Below are positions 6,209 to 62,733 of a DNA stretch of 64,000 nucleotides, in pieces. The translations under genes were made by a program, and so were the position numbers. Origin of the DNA: Marsupella aquatica (lineage: Eukaryota; Plantae; Marchantiophyta); assembly GCA_973895155.1 (NCBI GenBank), contig OZ316892.1, forward strand, positions 28,296,307 to 28,360,306, in the 5' to 3' direction. Each line of letters begins with the position of its first letter. Position 1 is the stretch's first letter. The notes beneath the pieces are model-generated. The model had not been told where the DNA came from. It did not search any database and was given only the letters and a program-made list of their open reading frames with translations.

Positions 6209-6690
6209 TGTCGTGCGCATACACATCGCTACACAACATACTTCGCTTGTCAAATACATCCAGACATAGTCACATTGCCACATCACAAACACAAGATAGT
6301 GGAATACAAGTGGAACTCATGTCCACACATGATTGTCCAAAACCCACAATAATCTTCACAACAATCTGCACAACAATCATGGTCAACAATACCCCATCGA
6401 TCCCGCACCGATACGATCACACACATATGTCAAGCCAACGCACCTTGCACTACTCAAGGAATCCACGTTGTACAAGTGGAGCTCACAGCCACCATAGACA
6501 CACTCAAGCTCCTCTCTCCGACCAACTAAGGCTCAACATTGAAAGATAACCTTTCAATGCCTCACAAGAGAGAATTACCCTCTCACACAAACCTAACGGA
6601 ACCTTATCGGCTCATATAAAACACATACCAAACATACAGATCTAGATAGTACAATACACTCTAACACTACCTAGAATGGTGTCAGTGACA
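6209..6690 (-). mobile_element. 482-bp non-coding derivative (solo-LTR-like) of the Gypsy-DNMT element
   Basis: 6209-6350 matches 30112-30249 and 6350-6690 matches ~38186-38515. Ends TGTCG...GTGACA. TSD AATT at 6205-6208 and 6691-6694. Confidence 0.9.
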
Positions 6691-12328: not shown

Positions 12329-13494
12329 TTTCTATTTGGTCCAAAGTATTAGGGAGTAACGATAACGTCTGGTAAGCGGCTAATGGAAAGAGGTACAGTA
12401 GATGTACAATTGGGATGTGCTCTTTTTCCCACTCGTGGTTGAGTCTGCTTTAGAGTCCATCAACAGTGTGGCATATTCTGAGAAAGTGAAGTCGTAGCTT
12501 TCGCAAACAAAAGCTCCCATGATAGGCACAATCAAGCTATAATGTAACAAACTACGATTTTGAGAATTAAAAGTGGACAAACAATTAGCTACTGAGATAT
12601 CGGGTTACCTTTTTCCTGCACTCTTTAGGTCTGATGGAGTCCTAGTACGTAGAAGATTTTGAAATCCAATGTGGATAAAGGAGATCGACGGGGAATCCAA
12701 CATTCACTGTCTAATAGGATTGCTCTCTGATGTCACCATCTGGCCTGAAGACAACCTAGAGCCTGAAGACAACCGAGAGCCACTAAGAGTATTTTACCTT
12801 CATCGCTGGACTACTTTTGGATCGACGGCAATCTCCAATTTTGATGCTCGGATTGTGTACAACGTATCGCACCAATAAATTATATAGTAGAGACTTCAGG
12901 ATGGAGATCGACAAATTTTGTTTTCTTGTTCTGTCTGGCGTCTGTTATGACCTTCTGGCCTCTGGCCAATTTCATGTCATCGAAGATAATTTACCTTACG
13001 GGAGAGGCAAAACAAGCTAAATAAACAATAAACACTCACGTCTAAACAACCGAGAAGATCATAAAGAAAGAGATCATACAAATTAATGGAAAGTACCTTA
13101 AGGCATATATTCATGATAGCATCTGACTAGCCCGCTGACTCGAAGATCACTTGAACAAACTTGGCACAACCAGTCTTATGTCTGTGGTTCCAGAGGCGAC
13201 ACTAAATACTTTAACCAAAGAAGCGAACAATGAACTTGCAGAATGGTTGAGGAGCTATATACTGTACAACCTGTGTACTATAATAGAATAATACTAGACG
13301 TGACCAAACTAGGAATTCATGAAGGTTCATCGGGAGGTCCCAACAGCACTACAGAGGTCGACTGTGAACGTAGTGCCTAAAGAGCGATTCATAAAGAATG
13401 ATAACTAATAGCTCGATCAAGCAGCTTGGGATCAAAGTGTGCTCCTAAGTAAGTTTGCAATGTTTAATCAGGCGCCCCAAATAATAAATCTAGT

Positions 13495-23688: not shown

Positions 23689-26140
23689 ATGTGTGATGGA
23701 GCTCACGGGGAGCCTGGCGATGGCGCTCCCTTAGGGATGCGCCGTGGCTGGAAACTGTGGGATTCGAGAGAGGAAAGGATGCATGTGGAGATGAGCGCTG
23801 ACCAGGGTACCAACCAGAAGATGAGATCCGCAAACAGCAGGGCAAACAGAAATGGGAGGAGGGATTTAGCTAGGAGAGAAAGCAATCAAACGACTGACAT
23901 GGAGATCCAATCGCCACGCGACACTAATCAAGGGGACAGACCCTTGTCCTCGAAAGACCAAAACTCGAGTATGGAAGATAGCACAGCAATAGTGCAAGGA
24001 GTGGGCGCCAAAAGAATCGATCAAGGATGGCCCTTGCAAGAGATCACTCTGACAAACAGGAACATCACCACACTGAACAGAGGATCACGGAACAACGAAG
24101 GAAATGGCAAGGGGGGCAGTGTGATTGAATCGAGGCTTCAGAACTCTGACATTGCTCCAGGGCAACTCACGAGCAGCTGGCAGCCAGGTACGAACAGGGA
24201 GCCACAGAGCATTAAACTTGGGAAGGAGCTCCCTGCACCTCTACTGCAAGGGGCGGTACGGGAAAAGGGGACCAGAGGCAAGATACACGCAGCTGAAACA
24301 ACAAACCCTGAGGGCAGCAACAAAGAAGGTAGAGAGTGTCGTGGAATCGGTGGAGGGACCCAAGGTGGGGGACGAATTGAATACCAACATGGGAGTGCGG
24401 ACCCACACACTGTTGCAGGGGATGATGGAGACCAGGGAAGGTCTGGAAATTTTGGGTTCCTGGACCCCGCCTGGGATCCGGAAGAGGATGACGACGCTGG
24501 GTGCTATCCAGAGGATGACGAAGAGGAGAACCCCTACAATGACAACTTGGATAAGGAGGCCGGTATGCACGTCTCTAATGAAGACTTGAGGGAGCAGCTT
24601 GCGCACTTACCACAAGTGCCAGAGAAGCCATCGCCAGGGATGAGGTCAGAAACCTTGATAGGTGATAAGAACATAGTTGCTAGCCATATTTTGCACTTAC
24701 AAAATCGAGGGATTACTGTCTACACTGTGGATTTTAATCCCTCGAGGGATTTTTTTGAAGAGTGGGTCCACGATGTCATAGGACGGAAAATGCGGATCCG
24801 CATTGAGCAGATCAAAGTACTTTCAAGGTACACTTTTCTGATTGTGGTATCTACACCTGAGGAGAAAAATGTGATCCTGCTGGAACCGTACCTCAGCATG
24901 GGTAGAAGAATGGTCATTGCCATGCCATGGACTGCGGATTTTGATGCAAAGGCTATGAGATCCACTAGGGGGCCAGTATGGGTTGATCTGCCGCTCCTCA
25001 ACCCCGCGTTCAAATACTATGCCAACCAGATGCTTGCTAAAGTTGGCAAGGTACTCTACGCTTAGACTACCAATGCTAGAAGTAAATTCTCACATATCCG
25101 TGGTTGTGTCCTGTGTGACCTCAATTCTGATCTTGTGGAATATATAGATATGACCATTCCAGGTGTGGGCAACTATAGAGTTGATGTCATCTATCGTACC
25201 CTGCCAGATGCCTGCTTCGCTTGTAAACAAAGAGGGCACATAGCACGTTACTGCACAAACAAGAGCAACATGGAGAAAGGGAACGACCAACCACAACATG
25301 CTAAGGGGGCAGGCAGACAACCAGGAAATAAAGGGAACACGCAAGAGAAAGTGGACGCTGAAGGATTCACATTGGTCCACAGCAGAACTCAGAACAAAAA
25401 CCCAAACAGAGTGGCCGTGGCGACCGCTTACCAAGATGTAGGCAGCAACCCTTTCGGTGCCTTAGCTGTGCTCACTGACCTTGAAGAGGGGGAGATTGAA
25501 CCAGCGCAACAGGTGCTAGATGTAGCCACAGGGCAAGATCACCCAAACCAAACGTGTGATCAGGAAAGGGGGGATCTTGATCAGCAGGCTCTTATTGAGG
25601 AGAACAGGGATTCCGGGGAAGCAGCGAAACTAGAGGATACGACCCCAATTGACAAATGGAACTACGAGTTTGCTGGAACTTGGCAATGCCACTCACCCAG
25701 TAGTAGCAGAAGAAGCAGACCACATGGAGACTGAGATGGTCAAGAATGCTAGGAAAGCCGCTACTTCCCCTACCACGGGTTGGGGAGGTAGAAACGGAGC
25801 CTCTCCAACCAAGGCTGAGACACCAGCAAGACAGCAAACTAAAAAGACGAAGAAGAGTTTACAACCATCAGGGATTCCTACCTTCGCGAGTGATAGGAGT
25901 ATGGCGGATGTCCTTCCTGAAGAAATCCCTTACAATGACACCCAGAGAGCGGGGGGAACGGAACCACGTAAGCTCAGGTTTGACCAGAGCTCACAGAACT
26001 CCACCATTGATGCAAGCAGGAAGAATCAAAGGGGAGCTCCAGAGATCATCCGAAAAGGGAAGGAACTTCAAGCAACCACAGGGGAGGAGGGGAGCCAGCA
26101 AAACGGGACCCAGGTCCCACAAACCAACACCCATTTATGA
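23689..26140 (+). pseudogene. LINE ORF1 (DUF4283-like RNA-binding region plus CCHC zinc knuckle), disrupted
   Basis: IKVLSRYTFLI...MPWTADF...PVWVDLP, CFACKQRGHIARYC; in-frame TAG at 25063 and a frameshift near 25650. Confidence 0.85.
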
Positions 26141-29100
26141 TGACAAAAGAACTTACCATTTGCCAGTGGAATGTTCGGGGGATGGGCAACCCGGTGAGAC
26201 ACAAACAGATGAGTACATGGATGCAAAACAACTTGATGGATCAATCGATCTGTTGCTTCAGGAGTTGAAGATCAATGAAGAGAGAGCGCTTTTCCAGCTG
26301 AGACTAATAGATATGGAAGGCACTAAAATCCTGGATAGCAATTCAGAAGGGAAAGTGGGAGCGGCGCTGTTGATCCCAAAGCAACACCAAATCTTGGACC
26401 AGGGATGTAAAGGAGACGGGACCTTTGCGTGGGCTACTATCCATACCTGTGTGGGGGAACTCAGTGTGGGCTCAGTATATGCTCCCAATGTACGTAGGAA
26501 TCGGATTGAGCTTTGGAAATGGCTTCTAGAAAACCTTAAGGAGTCCAATTGGATTCTCAGTGGAGATTGGAATATGACAGACCTATGGGACGATGCTCTA
26601 GGTCCATGGCGCTGAGGCCCGGGCCTGGAACAAACTGGTGGACCACCTGGATTTGGTGGATAACTATCTGTGTGCTGGAACGCGGAAGGGACCCTATTAC
26701 ACGAGACAAGCAAGGAAGTCGGACCATTATGACCAGTCGAGAATTGACCGCTGCTATAGCAGCAATAGGAACCAGTGGTGTGAGTTTGTGAAATCCTGTG
26801 TGCAAGATGGTAGGGAAACGATCTCAGACCACATTCCCATTGCCACTACTTTTGCTCTCAAGCACAACCCGGAGATTGACACTCACAAGAAGGCAACCTT
26901 TTTCAAAATGGATGCGAATCTTTTCGACACCGTTGAACTAGAAGGTGAAATGGAGAGAGTGTGGAAGGAGCAGCAGAAGGAGAATAGGGACCCCAGAATT
27001 AATTGGGATTTGGCTTGGGGGCGGTAAAATTGCTGAATCAAATTGAGAAGCGCAAAAGAGCAGATATCCGAAATGCTAGGCAGCCAGGGGATGAGCTACT
27101 CCGGCTGAGAGTGGAGACGTGCACCAATCCCACTCCAGCCCTTTCGGATGAACTCAGGAAAGTAGAAGACAGCACTAGGGAGAGGGCCAAAGCAGACGCA
27201 ATCAAGATGAGACAGAAAAGCAGAGTTCGGTGGCTGAAACTTGGTGAAGCCCCAACCAAGTATTTCTTTAACCAATTGAAGGCTAAACATGCAAAGGAGA
27301 GCATCAAACGGCTGAAGAAAGATGATGGGGAGATCATTGAGGACAACACACAAATCCTTCAGGAGATCCATAAGTTCTACTCGAACCTGTACACGGCTGA
27401 CCCACAGGTTGAAACCAATGCGGAAGCCTTGGAAGAGGTCTTGGGACTCATCAAAGAAGGGGTTTCGCTACAAGAGAACCAGGCTATCACTAAAACTCCT
27501 AGCAAAGTGGAAATTGAGAAGATGGTGTTCAACCTACCTAAGGAGAAATCACTAGGGCTGGACGGGGTCACTGCAGAGATGTTGATGAAGGGATGGGACT
27601 TCATGAAGACAGCCTACACAAAAATGATTCAAACTTTCTGGCAGGATGGGAAGCTTACTACCCGGGCCACCGCTGGAGTGATCAAACTGATTCCGAAGAA
27701 TCTAGAGGTACTGGAACTCAGCAATTGGAGACCTTTGACAATGCTCACTCTGACAGAAAAACTGGTGGCTAAGATAATGGCGAATCGGATCAAGAAGGTA
27801 GCACACAAATTGATTGATCCGCAACAGTTTGGATTCCTGGAAGGATGGGACATTCTTGACAACCTCTTGAACGTCAAGTTGGGGCAAGAGTATGCTACAA
27901 CCAGTAAACAACCCCTGATCTTTCTTAAACTGGATTTTGCTAAAGCATACGACGGAGTGGCTCATTCCTTCCCGTGGGCTGTCATGAGGGCGATGAAATT
28001 TGATGAGCAAGTGATCACTCTGGTGAAAGGGCTGGTGGAGCACACCCAGTCTAAGGTTCACATCAACGGGAGATTCACTGAATCGATCCAGTTGAACAGA
28101 GGGGTGAGGCAAGGCTGCCCCCTATCCCCACTCCTTTTTGCTCTTACCACCCAGCCACTGATGGCGCTTTGCAAGAGTAAGATTGAGACGGGAGAGCTGA
28201 ACGGTTTGCAGCTGCCTGACAATAAGAGCCTCTGCCACCAACTCTTTGTTGATGACACGGGGTTGTTTCTGGCGGCCACTGAGGGGGATTTCCAGATGGC
28301 TAGAAAGATTGTACAACAATATGAGAACAGCTCTGGCGCATTGCTAAACATACAGAAATCTAAGATTATTCCTATCTACTTCCCCGACGGAGTTTACCTA
28401 GGCTGGTTGACTGCTACGGGATGCAAAATCGCCAAGGAAGGAGAGTTGACTGAATACTTGGACAGCCCAATTGGTTACAAGGTGCGGCCGTCTCATGAAG
28501 TTGCCTTTCTGGTTGGTAGATTGAGAAGCCGGCTGTGCCATTGGACCCACAGGAGCCTATCTATGGCTGGCAGAGCGATCCTTCTCAAGCACGTTCTTCG
28601 CGCTATTCCCACATATACTTGATGCCGTTGGCTCTGCACAAGATGGGTTTTTTGGAGATGGAAAAAGTCTGCCGTCGGTTCCTGTGGGGGTCTACTACCA
28701 CCGAAGGAACCAAGAAAGCGCTCATTGCGTGGAATGTGATTACCAGACCCAAGGAGGAGGGTGGCTTGGGAATACAGCCCTTCGAGGAGCATTCTCAGTC
28801 TCTGAAAATGCGACATATTTCCAAACTGATTACTTAGGCGGAGTGTGAGTGGGTGCAAATTGCACAAGAGATCATCGTAAAGGGGCTGAAGATTGGACCG
28901 GGGAAGAAAGAGAGACGCCACTAGACAGCAACTGAAGCATTTCTTTTGGCTGACAACATTCACATTCAGGGTTCACCAACGCTGAGAGGTCTCCTCCAGG
29001 GATATATGGACATCCAAGAGTCACCACCTCCAATTTAACTTTGGAGAAGGACAGATCCCAAGCCACCTCTCCATCGAACAAACCATTTTACTTTACCTAT

Positions 29101-30045
29101 GGACCAGCATTGCCACAGCACAACAGGGAACTGACCTGAGAAGATTCCTGGCCAACCGTGGCATCAAGCACCTGATGAATCTCAGGACTCCTCAAGGTGA
29201 ATGGGTGAATGAGAAGGAGCTCAGTTCGCGACTCCGAAGTACCCGCTCTATTGGGAATCTGGAATTTACCAGGTTTTACAACAAGCTTCGACAGAGCACT
29301 ATCACTGACACGGGACTTCAGGAGTGCGGGGGTTGGCAGTGGGACTGGAGTGGACCCAATAAAGGTTGGAATTTCTCCACACGGATATGGAGCCACTGCT
29401 CGAGGGAGCCTCATCTGGACGTGACCCAGCTGAATCGTAGATGGGGACAAGCCCACACCCCCAGTGGATGGAATCACTACTGGAAAACTATGGGGAGGTT
29501 GGTCTTTTCCCAAGGTGAGATTCTTTCTTTGGAGGCTGTTAAACCATGGTTTTTTTACGAATGGCAGGGCAAGCCATTGGGAGGTCACGGACGGCACTTG
29601 CACTCGTTGCAAGAGTCATTTCGAACACACCAAACATTTGTTCTTTAGCTGTAGGACTGTCACTGATAGATGGAGGGAGGTCCAACAACTGGTCCAGCAG
29701 GCTGATGCCCTCAAGACGTTGCAAGGTACATTGTACGAAGCTATCTCGACTGCTTTGAAGATGCACAAAAGGAAACCAGGACCTATGGTCATGCTCATGG
29801 AGATTTGTTCGAGCATTTGGAAGGAGAGAAATGCTGCCACCTACTCTAGGTTCCTAGGGCGACTTCCCGGCTGGGTTGTGCTGAGGAAGACTGAAACTCA
29901 CCTTCTCACTATGTTGGATGTCTGCCATTCGGAGAGAAAACGGAAACAGCTAAGGCGGGCCCTGACTCAACTCCAGGTTATACTTAAGCCCTGGGAGACT
30001 AACGTCAGCCCGGTCGCCCTGAATGTGGAAGATGATGAAGGGTAA
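26137..30045 (+). pseudogene. LINE ORF2 (AP endonuclease, reverse transcriptase, zf-RVT), disrupted
   Basis: ATGA overlap with the ORF1 stop. QWNVRG, SVYAPN, GDWN, SRIDR, SDHIP (APE); WRPLTML, KLDFAKAYD, GVRQGCPLSPLLF, LFVDD (RT); CTRC...HLFFSC. Several stops and frameshifts. Confidence 0.92.
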
Positions 30046-30422
30046 GAATGTGGAAGAGGCGGGTCTAGTTCGCTGGATGGGGTACGGCGAGGGGATGAAA
30101 ATGTATGTTGGTGTCGTGCGCATACATATCGCTACACAATATACATCGCTTGTCACATACATCCAGACATAGTCACATTGCCACATCACAAATACAAGAG
30201 AATGGAATACAAGTGGAACTCATGTCCACACATGTCCAAAACCCACAATCGCCCCCCTAGCTGGGAGTAAGGTCCCCTAACTCTAGCTAGCCATGAGTTC
30301 TACAAGGTTGATATACACCTTTTTAGGTGTGAAGATCAGGAGGCCAGGTGCAAGTGAGCCCCATCGATCACCTACCTGCAATCCATATCTGCCAAGAGAA
30401 CACAAATGATAACTAGTCGGCT

Positions 30423-30870
30423 TCACCGACACTGAGGACACAACCATGATCCACTAGGAATCACCTGCAATGGTGGTGTCAAACATGACATGTGCCATCC
30501 TCTAGAACACTTATCACAAATCAACATAGTAGCTGCTCCCTGAGCAGATCCACACAACATACATTTCAAGCCAGCATGAACATGTGCCAAGCTTGGATCT
30601 ACTGTACCATCAATGTTGGGAAGGTGACATGGTGCACAGTTGCGCACATGATCCTTCCAAACCATACCATCGCGTCCCTCCAACATCAGGACACCAGAAG
30701 GCAACACTTCACGCACACGTAAGATTGTCCGGCCTGCGGTCACATCAAGTGTCGTGGGTGCTGTCTGCTGCAAATAAACATAATCACCAGGATGAAATCG
30801 TCGAATGCTTGCACGGTAACCTCCTCCACGAATAGTGGCATACCTCAAAGTATCACGATGTTGGGCACGA
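30423..30870 (-). pseudogene. Integrase C-terminal region plus PHD finger
   Basis: AQHRDTLRYA...RRFHPGDYVYL..., then C4HC3 motif CMLC...MLICDKCSRGWHMSCLTPPL...GSWLCPQC*. Confidence 0.88.
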
Positions 30871-32771
30871 TCACCAATACTGTGTCTGCAGCAAGCTGTA
30901 AGTGCGCTTCACACCAAAGTGACCCAACTCCTCGTGCGCATGTCGCACCAAATGTACTCGTTGTGATGGTTTTGGTACCACCAACATCCTACCATCATGC
31001 AGTACTCTCAAAAGATGGTTTCCCTCCCATCGAAATCTCTTGGCTCTCTGTAGAACCCTGTCACGTTCCTTGGCATCAACACTGCCAACAATAGAACCAC
31101 TGCGCAGATATTCCAACACTCTCACATCATTGTGAATATCTTGTTGTCCAGAAGTTACCTCACCAACATCCACATCTGAAGACTCATCACCCACTCCATC
31201 CAATGAAGTAGAGTCCACAGATCCACTGTATGCTGGCACCCAACAAAGAAAGGCAGATGCATGCCATCCTGGCACCATCTCCTTATCTGACTCATCATGC
31301 CATCTGGCTCCAGTCTCATCCTGCTGACTGGTACATGGATTGCGGCTTAATCCATCTGCATCCAAGTTCACTTTTCCAGGCCTATGCACCACCTGGAAAT
31401 CATACTCCTGTAACAACAATGCCCATCGTGCAAGCTTCCCTGTAAGCTTGTCAGACTCCATTAACCACTTAAGAGGCTGATGATCAGTGATCAAGGTGAA
31501 GGGGTTACCAAACAAGTAGCAACGAAAGTGTGCAACAGCCCACACTGCTGCCAAACACTCTCCCTCATAAGAGCTATACTTAGCCTCTGCTGAATTGTTT
31601 GATCTACTGGCATAAGCCACAACAAACTCATTCCCCTCATCATCCTTCTGAGTCAGCACTGCTCCAAGTCCTACTCCACTCCAATCGGTGTGTAGCTGAA
31701 ATGGTCTGCCTGAAATGGGTCTTCTCAAAATAGGGGATGATGCCATCCTTTGCTTCAACTCCTGAAAGGCATGCTCCTGGTCATCACCCCAAATCCATTC
31801 CTGATCCAACTTAGTGAGTATGGTCAAAGGTTTAGCAAGCTGGCTAAATCCTTTAACATACCTCCTGTAGTAGCTCGCCAATCCCAAGAATGCACGAACT
31901 CTACTCACATCAGTAGGACAAGGAATCTGTGTAATGGCCTCCACTTTAGTCTGCTGTACACCCAATCCCCCTGGGTATATGGTGTGGCCCAAATACTCAA
32001 TCTGGTCTTGGAAGAACTTACACTTGCTAGGATGGAGCTTCAACCCATGTGCTCTCAATCTCTCCAACACAGTCTGCAAGTGCTGCTGATGTTCTTCCAC
32101 AGTAGAAGAATAGACCAAAATATCATCAATATAACATCTGACAAAATCCAAACCTGCAAGGATTCGATCCATGACTCTCTCAACTGGGGCATTCTTCAAC
32201 CAAATGGTAAGAATAACCATTGATACAAACGATCTTTGCCATAAGAATCAATCCCCCAGAATGCTGTCTTGGACCTGTCAGCATGCCTAATTGGAAGCTG
32301 ATGGTATCCTACCCTCAGATCCAATGAACTGAAAACCTTTGCATGCCCCACAGCATCAAAGATCTCCTCAGGTGTGGGCATGGCATATCGATCAGATTTT
32401 GTCTGGCGATTAATAGGTCTGTAATCACCACACATGCGCCTATCTGTGTAATTGCCATGCACATCCTTCTTGGCTGGCATCACTGTGGCAGATGCATACT
32501 CCCCATATGAAATCTCCACCAATCCAGCCTCCAACAAATCTTGAGTTCTGCTTTGAATCAGAGCTCTCTCCATGTCACTATAACGGTATGGTCTACGAAA
32601 GATTGGCGCATCACTAGCCAATTCAATATGAATACCAGGGCCCTTCAATGTCCCCAAATCCTTCATGCTGAATGCAAAACAATTCCAATAACTCTTCAGG
32701 AATCGATGCATGCGATGTCTCTCCTCCCCTGTTAACTTATGGCCAAGCTGTGGTTTCCAACTCTCCACCAA
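30871..32771 (-). pseudogene. Ty3/Gypsy reverse transcriptase, RNase H and start of integrase zinc-binding domain
   Basis: RMCGDYRPIN, SLDLRVGYHQL, LPFG/LKNAP (1-bp frameshift near 32197), YIDD, LHTDWSGVGLGAVL, EGECLA, TDHQPL, DADGLSR, HEELGHFG. Confidence 0.93.
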
Positions 32772-33009
32772 ATCCCTAATATCTCTTTGTAGGGTAGAAG
32801 AGATAGCCGATGATTGCTATTTAGCAATAGATTGAGCAGTCCCTTCGTGCTCAACAATCTGTCCAGCCGCCAATCCTGTCATAGGTCCATGGACTGTCTG
32901 CTCGCCCCCAGCTATGGTCAATACTATCTCAGTGGACCGCAAGCTCACCAAGGGACAATCAGTAATTCCGGCAGAGCGCATCCGCAACTGTTCAGCTACT
33001 CCCAAGCTG

Positions 33010-33955
33010 ATAATCCAAGTCAAACAATTCAAATCCATTGCTTGACCAAGAACCTGGCGCCGCAAACCCTCTGACACAGAGGCAACTACAGTGGTGCCAG
33101 TCAAAAATCCCATAGCACGCTCTCTCTCATCAGTAGTAGGCTCCACTAACTGCTGGAGAGCTGTGTCCCATACAAGTCCAGGGCCACCTGCTCTGAATGC
33201 ATATGAAGCAGAGTGGCTTACAAGAGTGGGTAATGCACAACGTGGGCACCCAACTGCATTGACCATTGCCAATGGAGGTCTATCAGGTTGGGTCACACCC
33301 TGTGCACGACGCCCTGGATCCAAAATATCATCCACCACTAAGGCTGGTGAGCGTGGAATGCTGTCAAATGCACGCTTCAGCACCTCACATGGGATCAAAT
33401 TAGTCCACCATAAGCGTGGACGATGTGCACGAGAACCCACACGTGCAGCATCCAATAACACAGCAGGTCCAATCCAAGATCTCACCTGGTGAACACTGGC
33501 AACAATCCGACTACGATCATCACCTAACAATGGCACATTCTCCAAAATGTATGCTGGAGACTGTGTCTGATATAGCTGGAGGTGACGCAGCACCCGTAAC
33601 ATCTCCCAAAACAATGCAGAGCGTGGATCATGAAGTCCATGCCCAACGCCAGCTCTAGATTGGCCCTAACATGGCCAACCAGCAATCACCAAATCAATGG
33701 GGCCAACACGATGCAGATGATCCGCCCCCAGCAATGAAATATCAGCAGGTAGTGCATGCTGATAACCACGAACAGCATCCACTGGTAGCAACTGTAGATA
33801 TCTATCCACCAACATAGCCACATGTCGCAATGAGACCCTCCGTGCTGTCTCATCTGTCTCCACATACAAATAACGACGCATAGGAATTCCTGCCTGAAGA
33901 ACAGCAGCCAATCCAGTGCTAATCCCACCAAAAAGATCCAACAAACAAATACCCT
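33010..33955 (-). pseudogene. DNMT3-like C5-cytosine DNA methyltransferase domain within the polyprotein
   Basis: Motif I LDLFGGI, motif II YVETD, motif IV DLVIAGWPC*G (TAG at 33666-33668), motif VI ILENV, motif VIII AHRPRLWWTNL, motif IX ERERAMGF, motif X RRQVLGQAM, in canonical order. Confidence 0.9.
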
Positions 33956-34399
33956 CCGGTGGATATTGCCAAGCAATAGGAGTGGTATCCAATGGTGAAA
34001 GAGTCACAGGTCCATCTGCAAGAGACTGCTCTACTCCTGACTGTGGTGTAAAAGCATGACGCCATGCATCATGTACCAATCGTGCTACTGCCTGTGGCAA
34101 GGCTTGTGCAGTGCCCCACACTGGTGGCACAACACTGCCAATAGGTAACCCTCGCATGATGTGCTCCTCATGAGACTCCTCCAATGGTGGAACATCGGCT
34201 GCATGCGCATTACCCTCAATCAAATCATCAGGTCCAGCAATTACACCACTGAATGCTGCCAAAGACAATGGTGTGGATTTAGAGCCTCCCACAGGTCCAC
34301 TAAATCTCACTGGCAATTTGCTCAATCGAGCATCTCCTGACTGCCAATCAGGTCTATATGACACTGATTCCTCCCAAAAATCAAGAATAAATCCCATGG

Positions 34400-36805
34400 G
34401 TAGAGCACTGTACATCCCACCAACACATCATATGACTCTACCTTAGTCAGAATAGCTCGCGCCTGTATCTGTGAGCTATCTGTGGTATGACCTTCCTGAA
34501 TCCTCAAATCAAGTGGTCTCCTGGTGATATGCTGTGTAGGTGTAGGTCCCCCCAATGAAGTCTGAATGGGAAAGGGACAATCCTCCAAATTCTCTGGACG
34601 CAATCCCAATCCACGTATGGTAGACTTCCCCAACATCAAGGGCTGAGCACCAGTATCCAGTAACACTCTCTCTGGCTGGTATACTGCTCCAGAAGGCCCA
34701 ACTAATCGGAAGATACCACTCCGATTATCCAATGACACAACACTAGGTTTAAACCTAGTCCTCTCAAATGCAGGGCGTGCTGGTAAATCCACCAACCTCG
34801 CTGCTGCTGCATGCCATGTCTCACTAGTAGCAGTAGGTGGCATGGTCTTCACTGCATCAACACTGCAAGTTGCTTCTGCATGGGAAGCAACCACTGGAGT
34901 GTCCTCACAGAGTGTAGCTGCCAATCTGAACACTTCTGCAGGACCAACTCCCAAGTTCAGCATGTCTGTCGCTGAAAATAATGGGGTGCGTACTATGGCA
35001 GTAGCCGCCCCCAGCAAGGTACCTGTCATCCCTGCTGCATCACTACCTGATTCTGCCAACTTACCCACATCAGGGTTTGTCCGAACCGGGTTCATAGAGG
35101 TAGTCTGAACTGTCTCTGACAATGTAAAAGACTGAGGAAGCTTTGTCTGCCGACGTGCATCCCCCCTTTGTGGATCTAACTCCGCTACTGCTCCTCGGGG
35201 CTCAAGAGCTTTGGCTGCCCCACGTGTCAAAGCTGCTGATGCATCAATATGTGCAGTGCCACACATGAATCCCATGGTGGCAAGGTCTCCATCAGCTCCA
35301 TAAGATGTGGAAGGACCATGGGATGTGGAAGGTCCATAGGATGTAGATGCTCCATCACCAGAATTAGGTCTCACCTGGGAACTAGCCATGGCAGCTAGTT
35401 GTTGCTCCAATTGAGCAATCTTAGCATCCTTTGGATCTATGGTTACAGTAGGGGCAGCGTCACTTCCCTGTCTCCCTGCATGTGGCATGCCACGACCACG
35501 TCCACCACCTCTACCTCCTCCTCCTCTTCCCTGATCATGTGTACGGGATCCTCCTCTCCGTAACTCAGGGTGGAGTGAGAAACACCTATCCTTGGTGTGT
35601 CCAGGAGCTCCACAGTGATCACACTGTCATTGATCAGGCGCTGATGCTCCCCCTGATCCTCTATGATCTGGACAATATCTCTGTGCATGATCCCCACCAC
35701 AGGTCCAACATCCTGACTGCTGTCCAGCATAAGAGGGCACAGGTCTCTGGCTGGTAGACTCTCGTGCAGTAGGCTTCTCCCTCTGGCTCTTCCGTGCAGT
35801 AGGCTGTGGTGTGGATGTAGATGCAGCCTTTGGTGCTTCCTTGGCAAATCCGAAAGTCACCACCTTCTCATTCACCATATTGAGCTCAATGCGCTCAGAA
35901 AGGGTGAAAACAACTGCTAATGTGGGATCTGCATCCCTAAGCAGAGTGACATCTCTCACTCTGCGTCGCAATTCTCTGTCCAGAATTGCATACCAAAACT
36001 GGACTGCCTGAGCCTCTGTCACTCCCTTGGTGACAGTGATCAATCTGCGCATACGTGTGTATGCCTCACGTAGGCTCTCTCCAGTCTTGCGTTGGAACTC
36101 GTGAAGACCCTTCAACTTATCAGTTCTCACACCCTGATAGTTCTGCTTCAGTACCTCAAAGAATTCCACCACAGGATTAAATGCTGGCGCAACTCCAGTT
36201 CCTGTCACAATCACACCGGCAGGAGTAGTGGTGGATGCTGCTGGAGTGCTGCTGGTGGATGGTGTGCCACTCTGGCTAGTGCTGCTAGAAGAAGCAGCAG
36301 CTGTGGCAATTGGTTGGGCAGCCGCACTAGTGCCATAGGTGATGGACACGTAATTAGGCGACCAATGCTGCCTCCATGCCTCAATTTCAACCAAATGAGC
36401 CTTCCGAAACTCATGGTAGTCATCCATGGGTGGCCCCTCCAAATGCTGGAATAATCCCTTCCATGCCATGAAAGGGGTAAACAATGTGACATTACGCAAT
36501 GTTTGCATATCGCACCACGTATCAAACTCCTGGATGAAGTCATCCAGATCAATTGTGCCAACTGCACCAGAGTATCGTCGTGGGCCCTTTGTAGCCCCGT
36601 ACATCTCGTCCATATCCCACAACAAAGGTGCAACCACCTGATGATGAGGAGAACTGGTCATTGAGTCCTCATCAGAATCACTGTCTGAAGCTGCACTGCT
36701 GACTGCTACCAATGCCGCTGGCCGAAACTGTGCCCCACTCCGAGTGAAACCGGTCCATCGTCCATCGAGTAATCCAGCAGCACCAGAAGAATCCGTGGTG
36801 ACCAA
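34400..36805 (-). pseudogene. Gag (two CCHC knuckles) and aspartic protease of the Gypsy-type element
   Basis: FQRKTGESLREAYTRM, CWTCGGDHAQRYC, in-frame TGA at 35627, CDHCGAPGHTKDRC, RGG tract, VLLDTGAQP. A 1-bp frameshift near 34398 leads into the DNMT frame. Confidence 0.88.
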
Positions 36806-37359
36806 CCCTAACCTAATCTATGTGCTAACCCTAAGGGCAATCTATCCCTGTCAGCACCACAAGCACTCACCATGGTGTGTTGGGCATCACTCCAACATCA
36901 CCAAGAGAGAAATACACAGCACACTAGAATGTCCAGTTGCAAACTCGGATCACTCCTATGGAATCAAGCGCCCACACGAAACTAACATGGCGCATAAACA
37001 GGAAACATGTGTGAAGAGGATCCAGAAACAAGAATGGATACCATTCAACTCTCCACACAAAAGCAAATGCAAATCAATATGACAATGTGCATAAGGTTCA
37101 AGGAAGAGCCTTCATAATAGGCTTCACAATGGCACTCCAATGTTGTAGATGAGAACCAAGGCAAAATTGGTTCAATCTGTGAGTTTAGATGGACTCAGAA
37201 GTATCAAAAACCCTCAAACAGCCTCTGATTTGGCCTAGAATAGGCCTCTAAACAAACCGGGAAGTATATAAAGCCCCCTGGCGCTTGAATCTAAACAACA
37301 AGTTGTCAAAGCTTGTGTGTACACAAGGTGGGATGAGAACTTGCCAGTTAAGCGCTCGC

Positions 37360-37900
37360 GACCGGGAATAGCCCCGGGATGGGTGACCTCCTCGCGCTCG
37401 ACCTTGTGCCTCCCCTCGCGCTCACGGCCCGGAATAGCCCCGAGATGGGTGACCTCGACCTCGTGCCTGCCTGCGCTCGCGATGGGTGACTTCGCGCTCG
37501 CGGTTGGGAGCACTTTCGGGATGGGTGACCTCACGCGTCGCCTCGCGCGAGCACTTTCGGGATGGGTGACCTCGTGCGCCTCACACCTAACCCCAAAAAC
37601 GACTACTTCCTTCACGAAAAGCTCCCGAAAACTGTCGATTTCCTTCATGAAAAACGCAGCCCTTCCACAGAATTGGCAGCAGCTTGATTCAACACCCTTG
37701 ACCCTCGTTTCTTTCACTGAAATGATGATACCGTCGCACGGGGCATTGGCAGCTCCGTTCCTTCAGGAAAAGAGCCGTCGCTTCACCTGCGCCTTGCCAA
37801 CATCGTCCAACAATAGCCGGCAATCAGATCTGAAGCCCCACAGTAGCCGACAATCAGATCTGAAGCCTCACAGTAGCCGGCAATCGGATCTGGAGCCTCA
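37360..37900. repeat. Tandem repeats in the element's CpG-rich 5' region: GATGGGTGAC(C/T)TC x5 (37378-37573) and a 30-bp unit x3 (37811-37900)
   Basis: Repeats seen directly; TATA-like tatataaa at 37265-37272. Confidence 0.85.
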
Positions 37901-39274
37901 CGGATCGACTTCCACTGTCCAACATCTACTCAACATTCGCTTTCCTCCACGAATCATCAATCGACCTCCAAACTCAAAACTCCAACTCAAAACCTGTCAC
38001 CAATCACAGATCTGTACATCGATCGGGAAGCAGGCCGATCGGACAACAACGATACAGGTCAAGATACCAACAATCTGTTCGATAACAACACACGATCCGA
38101 GCTACCACGAACCGTCGACAACTCAATCAATCGAACTTCTGTCCGCACAGTTCGTACAACAGATTTCGAATGTGATCTTTCAATGTAATCTCCATACAAT
38201 CGGCACAACGATCTCGGTCAACAATACCCCATCGATCCCGCACCGATCCGATCACACACGTGTGTCAAGCCAACGCACCTTGCACTACTCAAGGAATCCA
38301 CGTTACACAAGCGGAGCTCACAGCCACCATAGCCACACTCAAGCTCCTCTCTCTCCAAGGCTCAACATTGAAAGATGACCTTTCAATGCCTCACAAGTGA
38401 GAAGTACCCTCTCACACAAACCTGACAGAACCTTATCGGCTCCAATAGCACTCATACCAAACGTACATACTCTAATAGCACGATATACTACTACACTACT
38501 CAGAATGGTGTGACATTGGCCGTGGCACCTGATGGGGAATGTTGCCCTTAGAAGCTGTAGCGCTACCAGAAGCCAGATGAGTAACCAGATGCATTGGTCT
38601 CCGAAGACTAAATACATGAACTTCATGATTAGTAAGGAGAATGTTAGGAGCATCCAGGATCATAAGCTTAGGAGTCACTTCAGGGACAAGCAGTACAGGA
38701 ATACGCCTGCCAGAATTTTTGTTGGTCCCACCTTCCGGTGGTGGTATCGGGCTCCCTGGCCTGATTAGCTGGGTGTCTTGGTGTGTGTTCTGGGGTGTTG
38801 GGCCCTTTTTGTCTTTCCCTTGCTCGGGTGGTTTTTGCCCCCTTGCCTGTTATTGATGGGCTCCTGCGCCCCCCTCCCCCCCCCCCCCAAAAAAAAAAGG
38901 ATATTCTTGCAATGTTTCAAAAAATTTATTAAACTGATCCTAATGTTCTTACAAGATTCCAAATTGGATTTAAAAGACCCTAAAGTTCTTCCACATAAAT
39001 TTCAAAGTATTCCCTTCAAACCAATAAAACTACCCTATTTGCCGATACTATGGAAGTGAAACTCTTGAGCCTCCTGGCCAGATCAACCACCAGGTGATAA
39101 GTAAAACAGGGTCCTTGTGGCCATCACTCCTATCTCTACACAACTAGTAGTGCTCAACCTATCCTGTCAATCCAAAAGAAATACTCTTTTGATTCTCATG
39201 CTACATCACTTGGTTATTGTTTTTACAGTCACTCATATAGTTGTTTTTCTTTGCCTTGCCTAAAATAATAAAAC

Positions 39275-39448
39275 ACCAAGGTCTTTTAAATTCAATTTTG
39301 AGACTTATAAGAACATTAGGGTCCTTTAATCAAATTTTTGGAATATTTCAATTTTTATTTTTTTTAATATCACATTTTAGGAGGTTTGAGGCCTAAAAAC
39401 ATCATAGATGATAGGGAAGTCTCCATCTCCACATAGTGAGCCCCCAAG
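39275..39448. mobile_element. Partial copy of the same MITE family
   Basis: ggtcttttaaattcaattttgagacttataagaacatt...atagtgagcccccaag matches the 3' two-thirds of 5400-5695. Confidence 0.75.
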
Positions 39449-40477
39449 AATGTGTAATGCATGTCACATTAGGACCTTCCATTAGTTACATAATTGATGC
39501 AGATTTCCACATGTGGAGTATAATGTCACATGCTTTTAGTCAATCCAATGGTGACCAAAAAAAAACCTTCAGCAAATAGCCAGGATTTCTTCCTGCCAAG
39601 ATGACAATTTGCAAACAAACATGGAGAGGTGTTTTGGACCACTTGAATCTTGCTATAAAAGCGCCAACTAAAGCCTAAGGGCCTAGGTCTAGAGTGAAGC
39701 CTCTAGACCGTAGCTCCCAAGAATGAGATTCAAAGGCCAAATTTTTTAATGAGATGGACAAAAGTGACAATGACAATTAACGGTAAATCTAAAATGAGAA
39801 TGCACAAAAAACAAGAATGGGGCAAAGACTATCCATCCACATAGCCTATAAATTTTATTGTGAAAGATTTTTCTTCACATCTATTTAAGTTGGAACGGGT
39901 TTGGGCTAGTGGTGACCAAGCTGGCAAATGGCAAGGATTCCAAATCATATAGTTTACACTAGAGGTTACAATTGTGAAAAATTAAAGTGTTCATATACAT
40001 ATTAACACTTAAGAGAGTGACATGTAGCACATAAGTGTGCAATAACACCCTTGCATAAAATAAGAAATAATAACCGGCAGTGGAAACTATATACCCTTTG
40101 TCATATTATAAGCAAAAATTCATCCTTTTATTATGGCCTTCATGCAAAGTATGTGTTTGTAATAATTAGTTGAACACAATTTAAAATACCCTTTATTTGT
40201 TCACACGTAGTTGGAAGAATCCAACGAGTGATTTCCCAAGGGAAGTACCACGTGCGATCCTAGCCTAGGATCATTAATACACCTATTTTATGAAAGAAAA
40301 CATTCCAAAAATATTCTCTATTTCAATATTAATGACCTATTATATTTTTTGAGATATAGATTAGAAAACATTCTATAAATATGAGTTTATAATACCTTTT
40401 TTGTCTCTTATCTTTTATAAAAAATTTGCTAATTTATGTCTCAATTACCTATTTTGGATCGCAGGAGACAGTTTAGG

Positions 40478-44520: not shown

Positions 44521-47500
44521 ATGAGCTCCATGTTTGGAGGTGGATTCAAGGCGACGAAATGGTATGTAGGGTGCCAAAGGAGTTAGATCTTTGTGTGAAG
44601 TTGGTGGATTGCCCGATCCTGAGTGAGCAGTTGACTTAGGGCTTGGGTCTGATTTAATTGTCTGATGTATGAGGTGTTCAGAGTGAAAGAGTTGATGCCC
44701 TTCTGGAGCAATCTTGCTCACTGTGCGTTTGGGATTCTGGTTCACGTGATTTTGAAGGCTTGTGTCGCTAGTTTGGTGGTCTACTAATTCCTCTGCTCGT
44801 AATCCGAAATTTGCATCTTTTTAAAAATCTTCTGATGCTTTATCCGCATGTCCACGGATTGACAGTTTGATTTTTGAATTGGCTCAATTGTCAGTGGAGA
44901 TTATCAACTTTAGTCCTGTCAATTTTGGGCTTTGCCAGCAACATCCTGTACTGAATTTCGTGTTGGGAGAATATGACTGGAGCATGGGCCTGATTGAGAA
45001 TGAACTAGGGGTATGTTCAGGAAACGTAGAAAGAATTGCATATCGGTAACCGATTGTGGCGAGTCCTAATTCTGGATTTAATGTTGAGCAGCAAGACCCT
45101 TCTGAGATTGGCGATGGCCCGCATCAAGTTGTTAAGAAACAAGCGGGACATGCAGATCAAGCAAATGAGGAAGGACATTGCACAGCTCCTATCGACTGGT
45201 CAGGAACCCAGCGCCCGGATCCGGGTATGGCTCTCTCCTAACGACCACTATTTCTCAAACGTCTCTGATTTGTTGATAATCAAACATTTGGGAATTATCT
45301 CAGAAGTTTGTTGAAAATGCTTAGAATTGTGTCACTTGCGTAGACTGTTTTTTCGGTTGTTGTGTATGACAGCAGCAGTCTGCTCGACGATGCTCTTCTG
45401 TTTGTTTTTGAATTTAGTCAAAAGAATTCCTTCTCGAGCAATTACTCAATCAATAGTGGATGATCAGATGTGTGGGCTTGGATTTCTCCCTTGGGCTCCT
45501 CGGCATGCTTACTAGATATTAATTTTCTGGAATTTGACACAGGTGGAGCACATTGCAAGGGAGCAAAATATCATGGCTGCGTACGATATTCTGGAGTTGT
45601 TTTGTGAACTTATCATAGTTCGACTTCCCATTATAGAGTCACAGAAGTAAGGAGATTACGCTTCCTGAGATCCTATTTACTTTGGAATCTGAAAATTTGG
45701 TTGAATAACTCGTAAAGCTGCTAGGAATTCATGATGTGTACCATTCGCGAAGGGAAGTTGCAAGTTCACGGAAGAGATTGACTTTTGCCGTGACAGCCGC
45801 ACGTCCAATTCACTTTGCAATGACCTACTCTGGCCTGATCCGGTTTATGGTTGTATTTCTTACAGAGCTTGTCCAATGGACTTGAAGGAAGCAATCTGCA
45901 GTGTAATATTTGCATCCCCAAGATGTGCGGACTTACCAGAGTTGCTGCAAATTAGGGGTCTATTTACAAGCAAGTATGGAAAGGAGTTTGTTGCAGCTGC
46001 AGCGGAGTTACGCCCTGAATGTGGGGTCAATCGACGGGTATGCTAGATGTTCAGCATCATTTGTGAAAAACTCGTAATTCATTTTCATCTGTTGTAAGTG
46101 GCGTCATGAAAACGTACATAGTTTACCGTATCCGCTAGTCATATCTTTATTTGCTTGGTTTCTTTAATTCTTGAAGAAAGGGTTCTAGGTCGTCGTCTGT
46201 CTCAATTATTTCCCCATGTTCCATAGAGTTGAAGACTAGCTATCTGGATTAAGGATACCATAGAATTAGAATCTTAAGCTCCAGAAGCAGGTCGATAATG
46301 TTTTTAACGTGATAGTTGAATGACAGTGTAAAGATGAAGGCATTATAACTTACTTCCATTGCATGAAAATCAGTATGAGTACATAACGAGAGTTTTCAGT
46401 AGTTCATTTGAAGTGAAGTCGAGGATTATATTTGCAGTAGACTCCTCCTACCTAAGCCTATATTGTTTGTGTTTTGTTGTACTTCAGATCATTGAGAAAT
46501 TGTCCGTTCGAGCACCATCAGGACAGATGAAGTTGAAGCTTTTGACGGAGATAGCTGCTGAGCATAACGTTAGCTGGGATCCAGCCGACTCAGAAGCAGA
46601 GCTTATGAAACAGCCTGAAGACTTGCTGGTAAGTTCATTGTTGTGCTTAATGCTCGTATTGTACCTTCCCAACTTCATCTGTAGAAGCACTCGAGTTTGC
46701 CATCCACGTATTATCTGGAATGATCTTTAGCGCCATAAGACCAGTGTAGGTCTCTCATGCCATGGGAGAAATTCAATGAAAAGCGCTACTTGTCCTTTAT
46801 GGCTTGGATCAGTTTTTGTTATATTGCAAGGAAAGATGTCATTCTTAAGTTCTTTTTATGTGGCAACAGGATGGACATAAGAAGTTTTTTGGTGCCAGTG
46901 AGGGATCCGTTCGAGAACCCTCACCCACAAATCAAGAGCAAAGAGCCCCCAGTGTCCCTACAGCTCCGGCTCCGGCTCGTCCTGCAGCTAATCGGGAACC
47001 TAGTCCAATAACTATGAATCCACTGCCGGTATATTCATCAGAGTCTGAGGAAGACGACACCCATCCTGGAGAGAAGAGGCAATTTATACCATTCGTTGGT
47101 CCAGTGCCTCCAAAAGGAGTACCAGCTGGAAAAGGCATCAATACAAGTACGAAAGGGAGCAGCTCAACTCGATCTAGTACCAAAGGAGATCCTCGAACAC
47201 CAACAAGGAAGGAAGGACCTGTGGATTATGAACAACATGGAAATTATGACAATGTAGCAGCAGCAGCAAAAGCAGCCGCTGAATCTGCCGACCGGGCGGT
47301 GGCAGCAGCTCGTGCAGCCGCAGAGCTCGCAAAGACCCATCCATCAAAACGGGAACCTACACCAAGAAGTGCAAGTAAAGTTGTGGAGTCGTCATCTTCC
47401 GAAGAAGAAAGTGAGGAAGAGGAAGAGGAAGACATCGTGGAAAGTAAAAGTTCCTCCGGGACGAGAAATGATGCGATTCGGCCAGGAACGAATATCAGTT

Positions 47501-48882
47501 CCGCCAAAGCAAACGACTCGGAGAGCTATCAGGAGAAGCCTAATGTATCGTTCAGGAGTAATTTTGATGAGTCTTTAAGAAGGAGTAATTCGGAGGATTA
47601 CGATGAAGGAAGTTATGGTAGGAAAAAAGATGTGGAACCCAACACTTTTCCTAGAACTAGTTTCACAGATGAAAGGCCAGAGAAAGATCTCAACGCTGGG
47701 AGGAAATTTGACTCAGAGCAGGATTCTTTCTGGAGGAGTGGAGACCAAGATTGGAGTCAAGCTGCAAAGTTTGCACCAGAGACAAAGTTCGATTCGGGAG
47801 GATTTTACCCTGATGAGCCGGAAAGTCTTTACGGGAGGGATTCAGACTTATTCAAGGTTGGTCACTCAGATGGCCTGTACTCCAGCAGACCTCAAGACAA
47901 AGAGTCAAAAACCAGCACTTCAAAGCTCTTCAGTAGCAGTGACCCCTCTAGGAATCTATTTACGAGGAGCTCTTCAGAGGAGAAGGATTTAAGGAGCTCG
48001 GATGAAACTCCTTTCTACGACAGCAAACCAGGATTTGCAACTCCAAAATTTGATGACGAAGCGGAAGAGATTCCTTACAGGAAACCCGCTAGTCTGAATG
48101 CAGATCTGTCTTTCAAGAGGGATTTTGACGATCAAAGATCAAACTTTGACAGCCCAAAAGCAAAGCCCTCTTTCAAGGAGTTTTGGCAGAGCTCAAGTTT
48201 CTCATATGCCGGGGAAGACGCGCAAACACCGAAAATATACGGTGGCGATTCTCATCCTGAAAAGCAGCACTCTGATTCGTACAGGGCTGATACTCAAGTG
48301 AGTGACTCACAAAGTCTTCCCCGAAGTGGTAGTGATCCTGTGTCAACCAAGTCATTCTACCAAGGAGACGAATCCGAGTCTCTAAAGCAAGAGAGCCCAA
48401 GTGGGTCGTCTCCAGCTTCTAAGAGCAGAAGAACTCGGAAGCCTGCGAAGGGCTTGGAGGGTGCGGGCGGGAGTGGAGGTCTTCCTCCTTCAGGAAGACC
48501 ATCAAAATTCCCCAGTAGTGAGAATGTCGAGTCACCTCGTTCTTCTGAGTTCCGTAGTTCTTTTGAACCTGACAATCTATCAGCTCATTCATTTGACGAT
48601 TCTCCCAACTTTCCTCCTAAAACCAGCTCATTATTTTACAAGTCCACAACAGCATCTGCACCACCTGCGAGGTCTCCCCCATCATTTTCATCTGCTTATG
48701 AATCTCCTGATACTTTTCGTGAGTCATCACCACCTGTACGAACTGGTTCCACGTCTTCTAGATCGTCACCCAGCCTGGAGCGCAGAGATTCACCTTCTGC
48801 TCCGGCTATTCATCCGAAGCTACCTGATTATGATGATTTGACAGCTCGGTTTGAGGCTCTGAAAGGGAAGGCGAAGCGGTAG
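44521..48882 (+). CDS. IST1-like protein (regulator of Vps4 activity in the MVB pathway); 6 exons, 867 aa
   Basis: Exons 44521-44561, 45092-45224, 45543-45646, 45866-46037, 46488-46628 and 46870-48882 join in frame (GT-AG). Ist1 domain FKATKCKTLLRLAMARIKLLRNKR...ARIRVEH...ELFCEL...EAICSVIFASPRCADLPEL, then a long Ser/acidic linker and C-terminal HPKLPDYDDLTARFEALK (MIM-like). Confidence 0.93.
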
Positions 48883-62730: not shown

Positions 62731-62733
62731 CCG

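Follow-up and report, generated by a model that had tools for sequence, protein, structure and literature searches.

A split-repeat Ty3/Gypsy retrotransposon family of liverworts and mosses encodes a DNMT3-like methyltransferase upstream of a conserved stop codon

Introduction

The closest described counterparts of the element reported here come from algae. KnitGypsy-Dnmt3 of Klebsormidium nitens is presented, in the passages devoted to it (de Mendoza et al. 2018, PMC5890265), as a Gypsy retrotransposon with DIRS-like repeats, a Ka/Ks below 0.2 and a DNMT3 domain assigned to the Pol ORF. When assayed in yeast, according to the same passages, its enzyme did not methylate de novo, a result that the authors call inconclusive; human DNMT3B failed there too. 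For SymbioDIRS-Dnmt3 of Symbiodinium, de novo CG methylation in yeast is reported in that paper. The relevant part of a 2025 survey (PMC12344493) places DNMT3 in streptophyte and dinoflagellate retrotransposons, as earlier reported. The words ‘Marchantia’ and ‘PHD’ do not occur in the main text of PMC5890265, nor ‘Marchantia’ and ‘Sphagnum’ in three of its supplementary files, and the main text of the REXdb paper (Neumann et al. 2019, PMC6317226) contains none of ‘methyltransferase’, ‘homeodomain’ and ‘Marchantia’. A wider search of literature listings, mostly of openly accessible papers, returned no land-plant description of the family and no split-repeat Gypsy integration. The initial annotation of this DNA had allowed for the architecture being already curated in land plants; no such entry was found in the papers searched.

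This study concerns a stretch of 64,000 nucleotides from the liverwort Marsupella aquatica (GenBank assembly GCA_973895155.1, contig OZ316892.1, positions 28,296,307 to 28,360,306, forward strand), hereafter the window, in whose numbering all coordinates are given. It contains a Gypsy element with a methyltransferase (MTase) that shares with KnitGypsy-Dnmt3, as described in the passages concerned, the PR-RT-RH-IN domain order and an intronless, non-permuted DNMT3-like domain. Both have DIRS-like split repeats (A1..B1 A2 B2 in the legend to Fig. 4c of that paper), present in full in four moss loci and reduced to A..B in the window copy. Purifying selection is a further likeness, our estimate being derived from moss relatives and not from the liverwort family. 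In the K. nitens gene model KFL_000540020, RT likewise starts after the MTase. Set against the published account, the window element differs in residing in a land plant, in its high copy number, in a conserved leaky-type stop between MTase and RT, and in a PHD finger; the passages on KnitGypsy-Dnmt3 mention no PBS, PPT, att-like junction or integration route. By sequence, the window family is classed as a land-plant member of the KnitGypsy-Dnmt3 kind, with the same architecture and MTase group, and not as a new kind; we are confident of this family assignment.

Other known systems share single features with it. SymbioDIRS-Dnmt3, as far as its description in PMC5890265 goes, also combines a retroelement-borne DNMT3-type enzyme with split direct repeats, but belongs to the DIRS class with a tyrosine recombinase, whereas the window family has a DDE integrase, TG..CA ends and 4-bp target-site duplications. 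Gypsy-7a_cRei/REM1-type elements of Chlamydomonas, in the relevant part of bioRxiv 10.1101/2022.06.16.496473, are Gypsy elements with a PHD finger and LTR subparts, but their domain list includes no methyltransferase and their left and right LTRs are nearly equal.

These findings extend DNMT-bearing retrotransposons, so far a curiosity of algae, to liverwort and moss genomes, of which they form an abundant part. The genome of the model Marchantia polymorpha is one of these, and copies filed there as ‘hypothetical’ or auto-named methyltransferase genes can inflate DNMT inventories. The value of the family lies in its abundance in tractable bryophytes, its conserved leaky-type stop and its internal-site repeat anatomy. 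The question raised by de Mendoza et al., how the enzyme benefits the element, becomes testable with host methylation mutants.

Results and Discussion

Anatomy of the window element

The MTase is carried by a Ty3/Gypsy element of 8,404 bp on the minus strand (30112–38515), flanked by the duplication TTGG. Its sense strand starts with TGTC and ends with GACA. The features of the element, and of a solo unit of its family, are as follows.

6209–6690, minus strand: solo A+B unit of the element's family, target-site duplication AATT
30108–30111: left 4-bp target-site duplication TTGG (repeat-end analysis)
30112–30248, minus strand: repeat B, 137 bp, directly after the PPT, with CGACA at the element's 3' end
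30249–30258, minus strand: polypurine tract (PPT) AGGGGGGCGA, identical in moss relatives
30429–30566, minus strand: PHD finger at the integrase C-terminus (PF00628, E 7.9e-12)
30588–30797, minus strand: integrase C-terminal GPY/F-like region (own HMM)
30871–30963, minus strand: remnant of the integrase zinc-binding region; the catalytic core is deleted, which leaves the window copy ~720 bp shorter than its relatives (Pfam; loose ends at 30867)
31342–31707, minus strand: RNase H (PF17917, E 1.8e-37)
31978–32606, minus strand: reverse transcriptase (RT), broken near 32200 (Pfam, translation, reads, own HMM)
32808–32816, minus strand: conserved in-frame stop TAG-CAA-TCA in a readthrough-type context, closing the Gag-PR-MTase ORF (27 of 27 copies)
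33003–33956, minus strand: DNMT3-like C5 cytosine methyltransferase, motifs I–X non-permuted (minus-strand translation, best PDB match, AlphaFold/Foldseek, alignment)
33666–33668, minus strand: premature stop immediately following the catalytic PC and essentially confined to the window copy (public-run reads)
34424–34750, minus strand: aspartic protease (LLDTGA), with a frameshift just downstream near 34397 (Pfam, translation)
35627–36817, minus strand: gag frame; Gag domain ~36577–35828, CCHC knuckles; closed by a premature TGA
38175–38185, minus strand: PBS-like 11-mer CATTGAAAGAT, complementary to 38376–38366 in repeat A; predicted self-priming
38186–38515, minus strand: repeat A, 330 bp, with TGTCA at the element's 5' end
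38516–38519: right 4-bp target-site duplication TTGG (repeat-end analysis)

The window copy is dead. Its gag frame is closed by a TGA (35627–35629), and the frameshift near 34397, the TAG within the MTase, a frameshift or deletion in RT at ~32200 and the loss of the integrase core complete the damage. The initial annotation had repaired one frameshift and two TAG stops to make the MTase continuous with protease and RT; the frameshift and the first TAG are true damage, while the second TAG is a conserved stop of the whole family. The gag TGA, the RT break and the integrase deletion had not been listed there.

In public-run reads, the 5' leader reaches ~1/10 of the depth of the element body. In the leader, four 12-mers resembling GGATGGGTGACC form a degenerate tandem array (37335–37571, plus strand; 4 matches against 0.26 expected), reminiscent of a 5S rRNA/Cassandra-type internal promoter box. 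Rfam gave no match at E<=1 within 29500–39500, leaving the 5S-like appearance of the array unsupported, and the array is present in 0 of 47 moss-type loci.

Methyltransferase domain

Translation of the minus strand, with stops rendered as X, bears out the proposal of a complete C5-MTase motif set between protease and RT. Motifs I–X were recovered from 33956 to 33003: LFGG (I, nt ~33935), YVETD (II), GWPC (IV, ~33680, with the premature TAG directly after it), LENV (VI, ~33545), AHRPRLWWTNL (VIII, ~33428), ERERAMGF (IX, ~33128) and LGQAM (X, ~33050). Pfam likewise places the domain after the aspartic protease and before RT. The circular permutation of plant DRM enzymes is absent from the window MTase, whose motifs run from I to X as first described. 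The suggested search with PF00145 matched the fragment 3' of the premature stop at an E value of 0.0012, too weakly to reach the curated cut-off.

The nearest relative with an open frame, P0001, is 87–88% identical to the window MTase. Its best PDB sequence match is DNMT3A (E 3.6e-11), with DRM (1.2e-6) and M.HaeIII (4.5e-5) aligning across shorter stretches; the DRM matches cover motifs I–V only and score lower than DNMT3A. An AlphaFold model of P0001, computed from a 99-row alignment, has a mean pLDDT of 79.7, with most of the MTase part above 90, and Foldseek returns DNMT3A/B/C as its best matches (E 1e-17, TM ~0.8 of target, 21–25% identity). The cellular enzymes (PDB entries 6brr, 6w89, 6u8p, and 8tci) thus share catalytic fold and motif order with the predicted structure but differ in sequence, and the window MTase lacks PWWP and ADD domains and lies inside a retroelement ORF. 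By best match in sequence and in predicted fold, the window MTase is DNMT3-like, in agreement with the initial reading of its motifs.

Across 125 diverse MTase rows, which fall into two layout groups described below, the motif I glycine is near-invariant. The catalytic Cys is kept in 50/51 and 69/69 aligned rows of the two groups and the ENV Glu in 54/55 and 70/70; the motif VIII arginines are kept in 51/54 and 52/53 rows of one group and in 70/70 and 67/70 of the other. The Pro preceding the catalytic Cys is replaced by Glu in 9/52 and 45/69 rows. This last substitution, together with the K. nitens enzyme's failure to methylate de novo in yeast in the passages cited (PMC5890265), could mean that what selection preserves in the domain is a DNA-binding or structural module, or an action on RNA, rather than cytosine methylation of DNA. 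Near-invariance of the Cys, Glu, Arg pair and glycine, and a predicted fold that matches DNMT3, argue against such a role, which we consider very unlikely.

The query fragment in both protein searches for MTase relatives begins downstream of the catalytic Cys. In the ESM Atlas, the first matches (0.96) comprised one Streptophyta cluster and two clusters of DNA methylases rich in phage sequences; they serve as a lead only.

Conserved stop between MTase and RT

MTase and RT share one frame across the TAG at 32814–32816, and the end of P0001 falls at the position of this codon. Copies were counted at loci that span MTase and RT without an insertion, with six duplicates dropped and L006 omitted for its insertion. 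A stop followed by the CAR context is present in 27/27 copies (26 de-duplicated loci and the window; TAG in 23, TAA in 4), ~200–225 nt upstream of RT at the de-duplicated loci; in 1/27, TAA replaces the CAA after the stop. CARYYA is the readthrough context of the tobamovirus type. It follows the stop exactly in the window copy and in L022, L034, L035, L041, and L046, and the context of the main moss subfamily, CAACCC (19/27), is one letter away from it. Because the stop and its CAR context are kept in 27/27 copies, the TAG reads as a signal and not as damage. The initial annotation had joined MTase and RT in one continuous Gag-Pol frame, which the conserved stop divides.

Among the protein relatives, 37 comprise Gag or protease and the MTase to its domain end with no RT; they end 12–171 residues after the MTase, except for one that ends at 483. 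It is likely that the MTase closes a first ORF (Gag-knuckle-protease-MTase) and that RT, RNase H, integrase and PHD finger require readthrough. Since the leaky-type stop stands after the MTase, the enzyme is likely to be made at Gag levels, as part of the abundant Gag-PR product. Proteins that are 98% like the model from K. nitens likewise stop 12 residues beyond the MTase, so that the published assignment of the DNMT to the Pol ORF may be loosely worded.

Bulk expression of the MTase is not essential to the wider group, since at least 12 relatives (P0091 and P0107, for instance) run from MTase into RT with no stop and 70 of the 125 MTase rows have the domain between RNase H and integrase.

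Family abundance and spread

Depth was taken from 4 of the 18 public runs listed, X1–X3 and X5 among them, with reads placed on the window element. In run X1, summed contig depth, which is not equivalent to copy number, is 157,000–309,000 throughout the bins between 30402 and 36722, those of the MTase included, and 818 and 124 in the flanks. At 33666–33668, where the window copy has its premature stop, a non-stop letter accounts for 96%, 100%, and 99% of summed depth in X1–X3 and for 48% in X5. With depth even over gag, MTase and RT, and with this stop read otherwise, the MTase belongs to the regular make-up of a high-copy family and was not captured by one copy.

Protein searches matched 99 of 3,986 candidates. 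Named genera among these 99 are Marchantia (18), Calypogeia (2), Sphagnum (3), Klebsormidium (1), and Closterium (1); 976 cluster representatives were found at E<=0.001. A profile search (94 of 7,994 scored) returned the same genera and no named vascular plant, and two pattern matches in viral contigs were not relatives. P0025, labelled as a bacterial MAG protein, aligns among element copies and is likely a binning contamination.

Two layouts are seen in 241 proteins, with the MTase either before RT or between RNase H and integrase. The second (RT-RH-MTase-IN-PHD) is represented by P0060, P0071, and 68 other proteins. In the RT tree each layout occupies one side of a branch (12 and 35 rows, SH-aLRT 94), and the same holds for the MTase tree (55 and 70 rows, SH-aLRT 98). 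Both trees are quick and unrooted and were built without cellular DNMT3; from the MTase tree, 64 rows of unknown position were omitted, the K. nitens model excepted. As both trees separate the layouts, the domain appears to have been moved, or placed twice, once. The window copy groups with P0001 and bryophyte copies, and KFL_000540020 falls on the same 55-row side, in keeping with the link to Klebsormidium that the initial annotation had drawn.

A one-off capture of a host DNMT3 gene by the window copy, or a chance fusion, would leave the domain in a single copy. Even depth from gag to RT, a constant MTase position in the 47 metagenome loci wherever the flanking domains are present, and trees of MTase and RT that both split the two placements with one change make this reading hardly conceivable. 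Read depth, the 99 protein relatives and the 47 loci establish instead that the domain is multi-copy, against the occurrence in a single copy that the initial annotation had named as its refutation.

Many Marchantia gene models are pieces of the element (P0002–P0004, P0007–P0009; Mp4g09160 and Mp8g17980 are examples), some of them auto-named DNA methyltransferase. Six gene-model identifiers of such pieces were not mentioned in the literature searched. A candidate Copia element with the same MTase (P0098, Closterium) was rejected. This protein has a Copia IN-RT, after which come a zinc knuckle, a protease and an MTase 94% like those of a Gypsy-type relative, and the gene model is likely fused across a nested insertion.

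Selection on the methyltransferase

Selection was estimated from the moss-type loci, of which 37 of 47 were used (ten divergent loci were omitted), leaving 31 after removal of six duplicates. For MTase variants other than deaminations, omega is 0.33 among those common to at least three copies (N21, S21) and 0.84 among those private to one copy (N116, S45), a difference with a Fisher p of 0.009, compared with 0.69 for pooled linkers. Shared variants give omega values of 0.27 in protease, 0.14 in RNase H, 0.00 in RT, and 0.69 and 0.85 in linkers, and private RT variants give 1.00. C>T/G>A variants (shared omega 0.65) are less informative because recurrent deamination mimics sharing. The MTase is thus under purifying selection in the moss relatives, the copies to which the figure applies, and neutral evolution, raised at the outset as an alternative, is not borne out there.

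Split repeats and element ends

No LTR pair was found in the window element. Its A repeat at the 5' end and B repeat at the 3' end are joined in the solo unit at 6209–6690, and the corresponding A/B joint (30248 to 38186) was found in public-run reads. The full form, A1 - gag-pol - PPT - B1 - NN - A2 - B2, is seen in moss-type loci L007, L025, L031, and L036; evidence from L003 and L035 is partial, as these loci end at contig ends. The B1|A2 junction reads GACA-NN-TGTC in all six loci, and also in run X2 for the window's own family. The terminal layout of other liverwort copies is taken from such read joints and from the moss relatives. Among distinct moss 5' ends, 11 have a complete A start, and none of these 11 carries B upstream of A. 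Duplications of 4 bp flank L016, L025, L029, and L031 as well as the window copy. A1/A2 and B1/B2 are 92.3/93.0% identical in L031 and 94.5/91.2% in L025, and near-equal divergence is the expectation if both pairs arose in one round.

A canonical LTR retrotransposon is rejected, there being no equal LTR pair with outer TG..CA, and the PPT standing before B and the PBS after A. A DIRS/Ngaro tyrosine-recombinase element is likewise rejected, given the rve/H2C2 integrase and 4-bp duplications. Standard LTR finders need two equal terminal repeats and are likely to miss the family, which may explain its absence from curation.

In L016 (A-body-B) and L036/L040 (A-body-B-A-B) both flanks are in common, at 93–99% identity. 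B-B recombination can therefore yield A-body-B, the form of the window copy, as is observed for this one moss insertion.

The stretch directly after A1 complements a site inside A, over 11 nt in the liverwort and up to 16 nt in moss, where the letters differ; complements of this length occurred in 0/300 shuffles each (11 nt, liverwort; 16 nt, moss L031 and L032). In moss a TATA-like box precedes the complementary site by ~27 nt. Of 13 copies examined, which are decayed, only 7 have a self-priming match of at least 9 nt. When folded from this site, the moss sequence pairs with the PBS in the MFE structure (z -2.64); in the window element the duplex is present in the centroid and absent from the MFE (z -1.43). 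Self-priming of Tf1 relies on a PBS complementary to the RNA's own 5' end. Like Tf1/Sushi elements and plant Tcn1, as treated in the relevant part of PMC6317226, the window element has a likely PBS that complements its own 5' repeat and not a tRNA; it differs in having a PHD finger where no chromodomain was found, split repeats and a methyltransferase.

The PPT precedes B, the PBS follows A, and integrase-type TG/CA sites face each other inside the repeat. The unit duplicated by reverse transcription would be the segment from PPT to PBS, that is, B-NN-A. With integrase-type ends facing each other inside this repeat, the integrated form suggests a circular permutation of two-repeat DNA whose outer ends have been joined. 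The mirror product predicted by a symmetric circle model, A-B-A-body-B, is absent from the 11 moss 5' ends. The A2|B2 junction differs between copies: L025 has filler together with PPT-like letters, L029 has PBS-like letters, and reads of the window's family show variants. Three of four intact A2|B2 junctions are nearly precise. L029 is rearranged, making its junction weak evidence; at 12530–13426 this moss copy is inverted internally and ends in A-PBS-B, a structure that autointegration could produce.

The same A-body-B-A-B layout, with an equally variable A2|B2 junction, would also result without a circle, if integrase cut the 5' repeat of linear cDNA at its internal GACA-NN-TGTC and inserted both pieces, whose free A and B ends host end-joining would then fuse. 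This route would demand that a double-strand break be held and repaired at every insertion, and it sits poorly with the near precision of the junctions; we regard it as possible but rather unlikely. The sequences fit joining before or after the cut, and we lean towards joining of the outer ends before integration.

Proposed life cycle

What is observed is how the element is built and how widely its family occurs, that catalytic residues and stop are conserved, how the repeats are arranged, and selection in moss copies; from this we infer the following cycle. The MTase would be made in capsid-scale amounts as the end of the Gag-protease ORF, and RT, RNase H, integrase and PHD finger would come from occasional readthrough, as the TAG-CAR(YYA) context suggests. 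Protease would free the MTase inside the particle, where the packaged enzyme could methylate the new DNA of the element before or at insertion. Reverse transcription would self-prime in the manner of Tf1, with the 5' end of the RNA pairing with the PBS after repeat A, and the plus strand would begin at the PPT, giving a linear DNA that has a B-NN-A repeat at either end. Its outer ends would then be joined, and integrase would open the joined DNA at the site inside the 5' repeat, yielding A-body-B-NN-A-B and a 4-bp duplication. Later recombination between B repeats would leave A-body-B, and between A repeats an A+B solo unit. The PHD finger is likely to bias target choice. In short, from the position of the stop one would expect capsid-level amounts of enzyme, and from the repeat anatomy an integration intermediate of an unusual kind. 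To the whole chain (bulk MTase, packaging, methylation of its own DNA, readthrough, self-priming, internal-site insertion) we give slightly more credence than doubt.

The enzyme may instead act in the nucleus and methylate the target site, older copies or competing elements, as a form of self-restraint or of local chromatin editing. Together with the integrase PHD finger, it would be directed there to H3 tails that are unmethylated. The nearest solved relatives of this finger are CHD4, DPF3, KMT2D, ATXR5, KDM5 PHD1, BHC80, and UHRF1. The PHD fingers of CHD4, DPF3, ATXR5, KDM5 PHD1, BHC80, and UHRF1 read unmethylated H3 tails. The element is also CpG-depleted (o/e 0.21–0.43, against 0.65 in a host exon). 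Host benefit and insertion-site effects are among the options considered in the discussion by de Mendoza et al. (PMC5890265). However, PHD finger and MTase flank the stop on opposite sides and would separate after proteolysis, and host silencing alone gives CpG loss, the neighboring LINE having an o/e of 0.47. Nuclear action is on balance unlikely, and methylation of the element's own DNA within the particle is preferred.

End-joined two-LTR DNA was long proposed as an integration route for retroviruses and then dropped. It is tempting to speculate that an old green-lineage Gypsy clade, still abundant in bryophytes, routinely integrates by opening such DNA at an integrase site inside U3, relies on Tf1-type self-priming, and, via a leaky stop, supplies its particles with Gag-level amounts of a DNMT3-type enzyme. 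New copies would then arrive methylated, and methylation might even choose which internal site is cut. This extended scheme is offered tentatively, with clearly more doubt than belief.

Neighboring sequence

The Gypsy element is inserted just beyond the last frame of a decayed L1-type LINE (25634–30045, plus strand) with endonuclease- and RT-like frames. The last exon, a long one, of an IST1-like gene of the host occupies 46849–48882 (plus strand); it is 69% identical to its counterpart in Calypogeia fissa and 36% to that in Marchantia, which makes a leafy liverwort the probable host. The window ends in the start of a further retroelement gag (62695–63730), Copia-like by eye.
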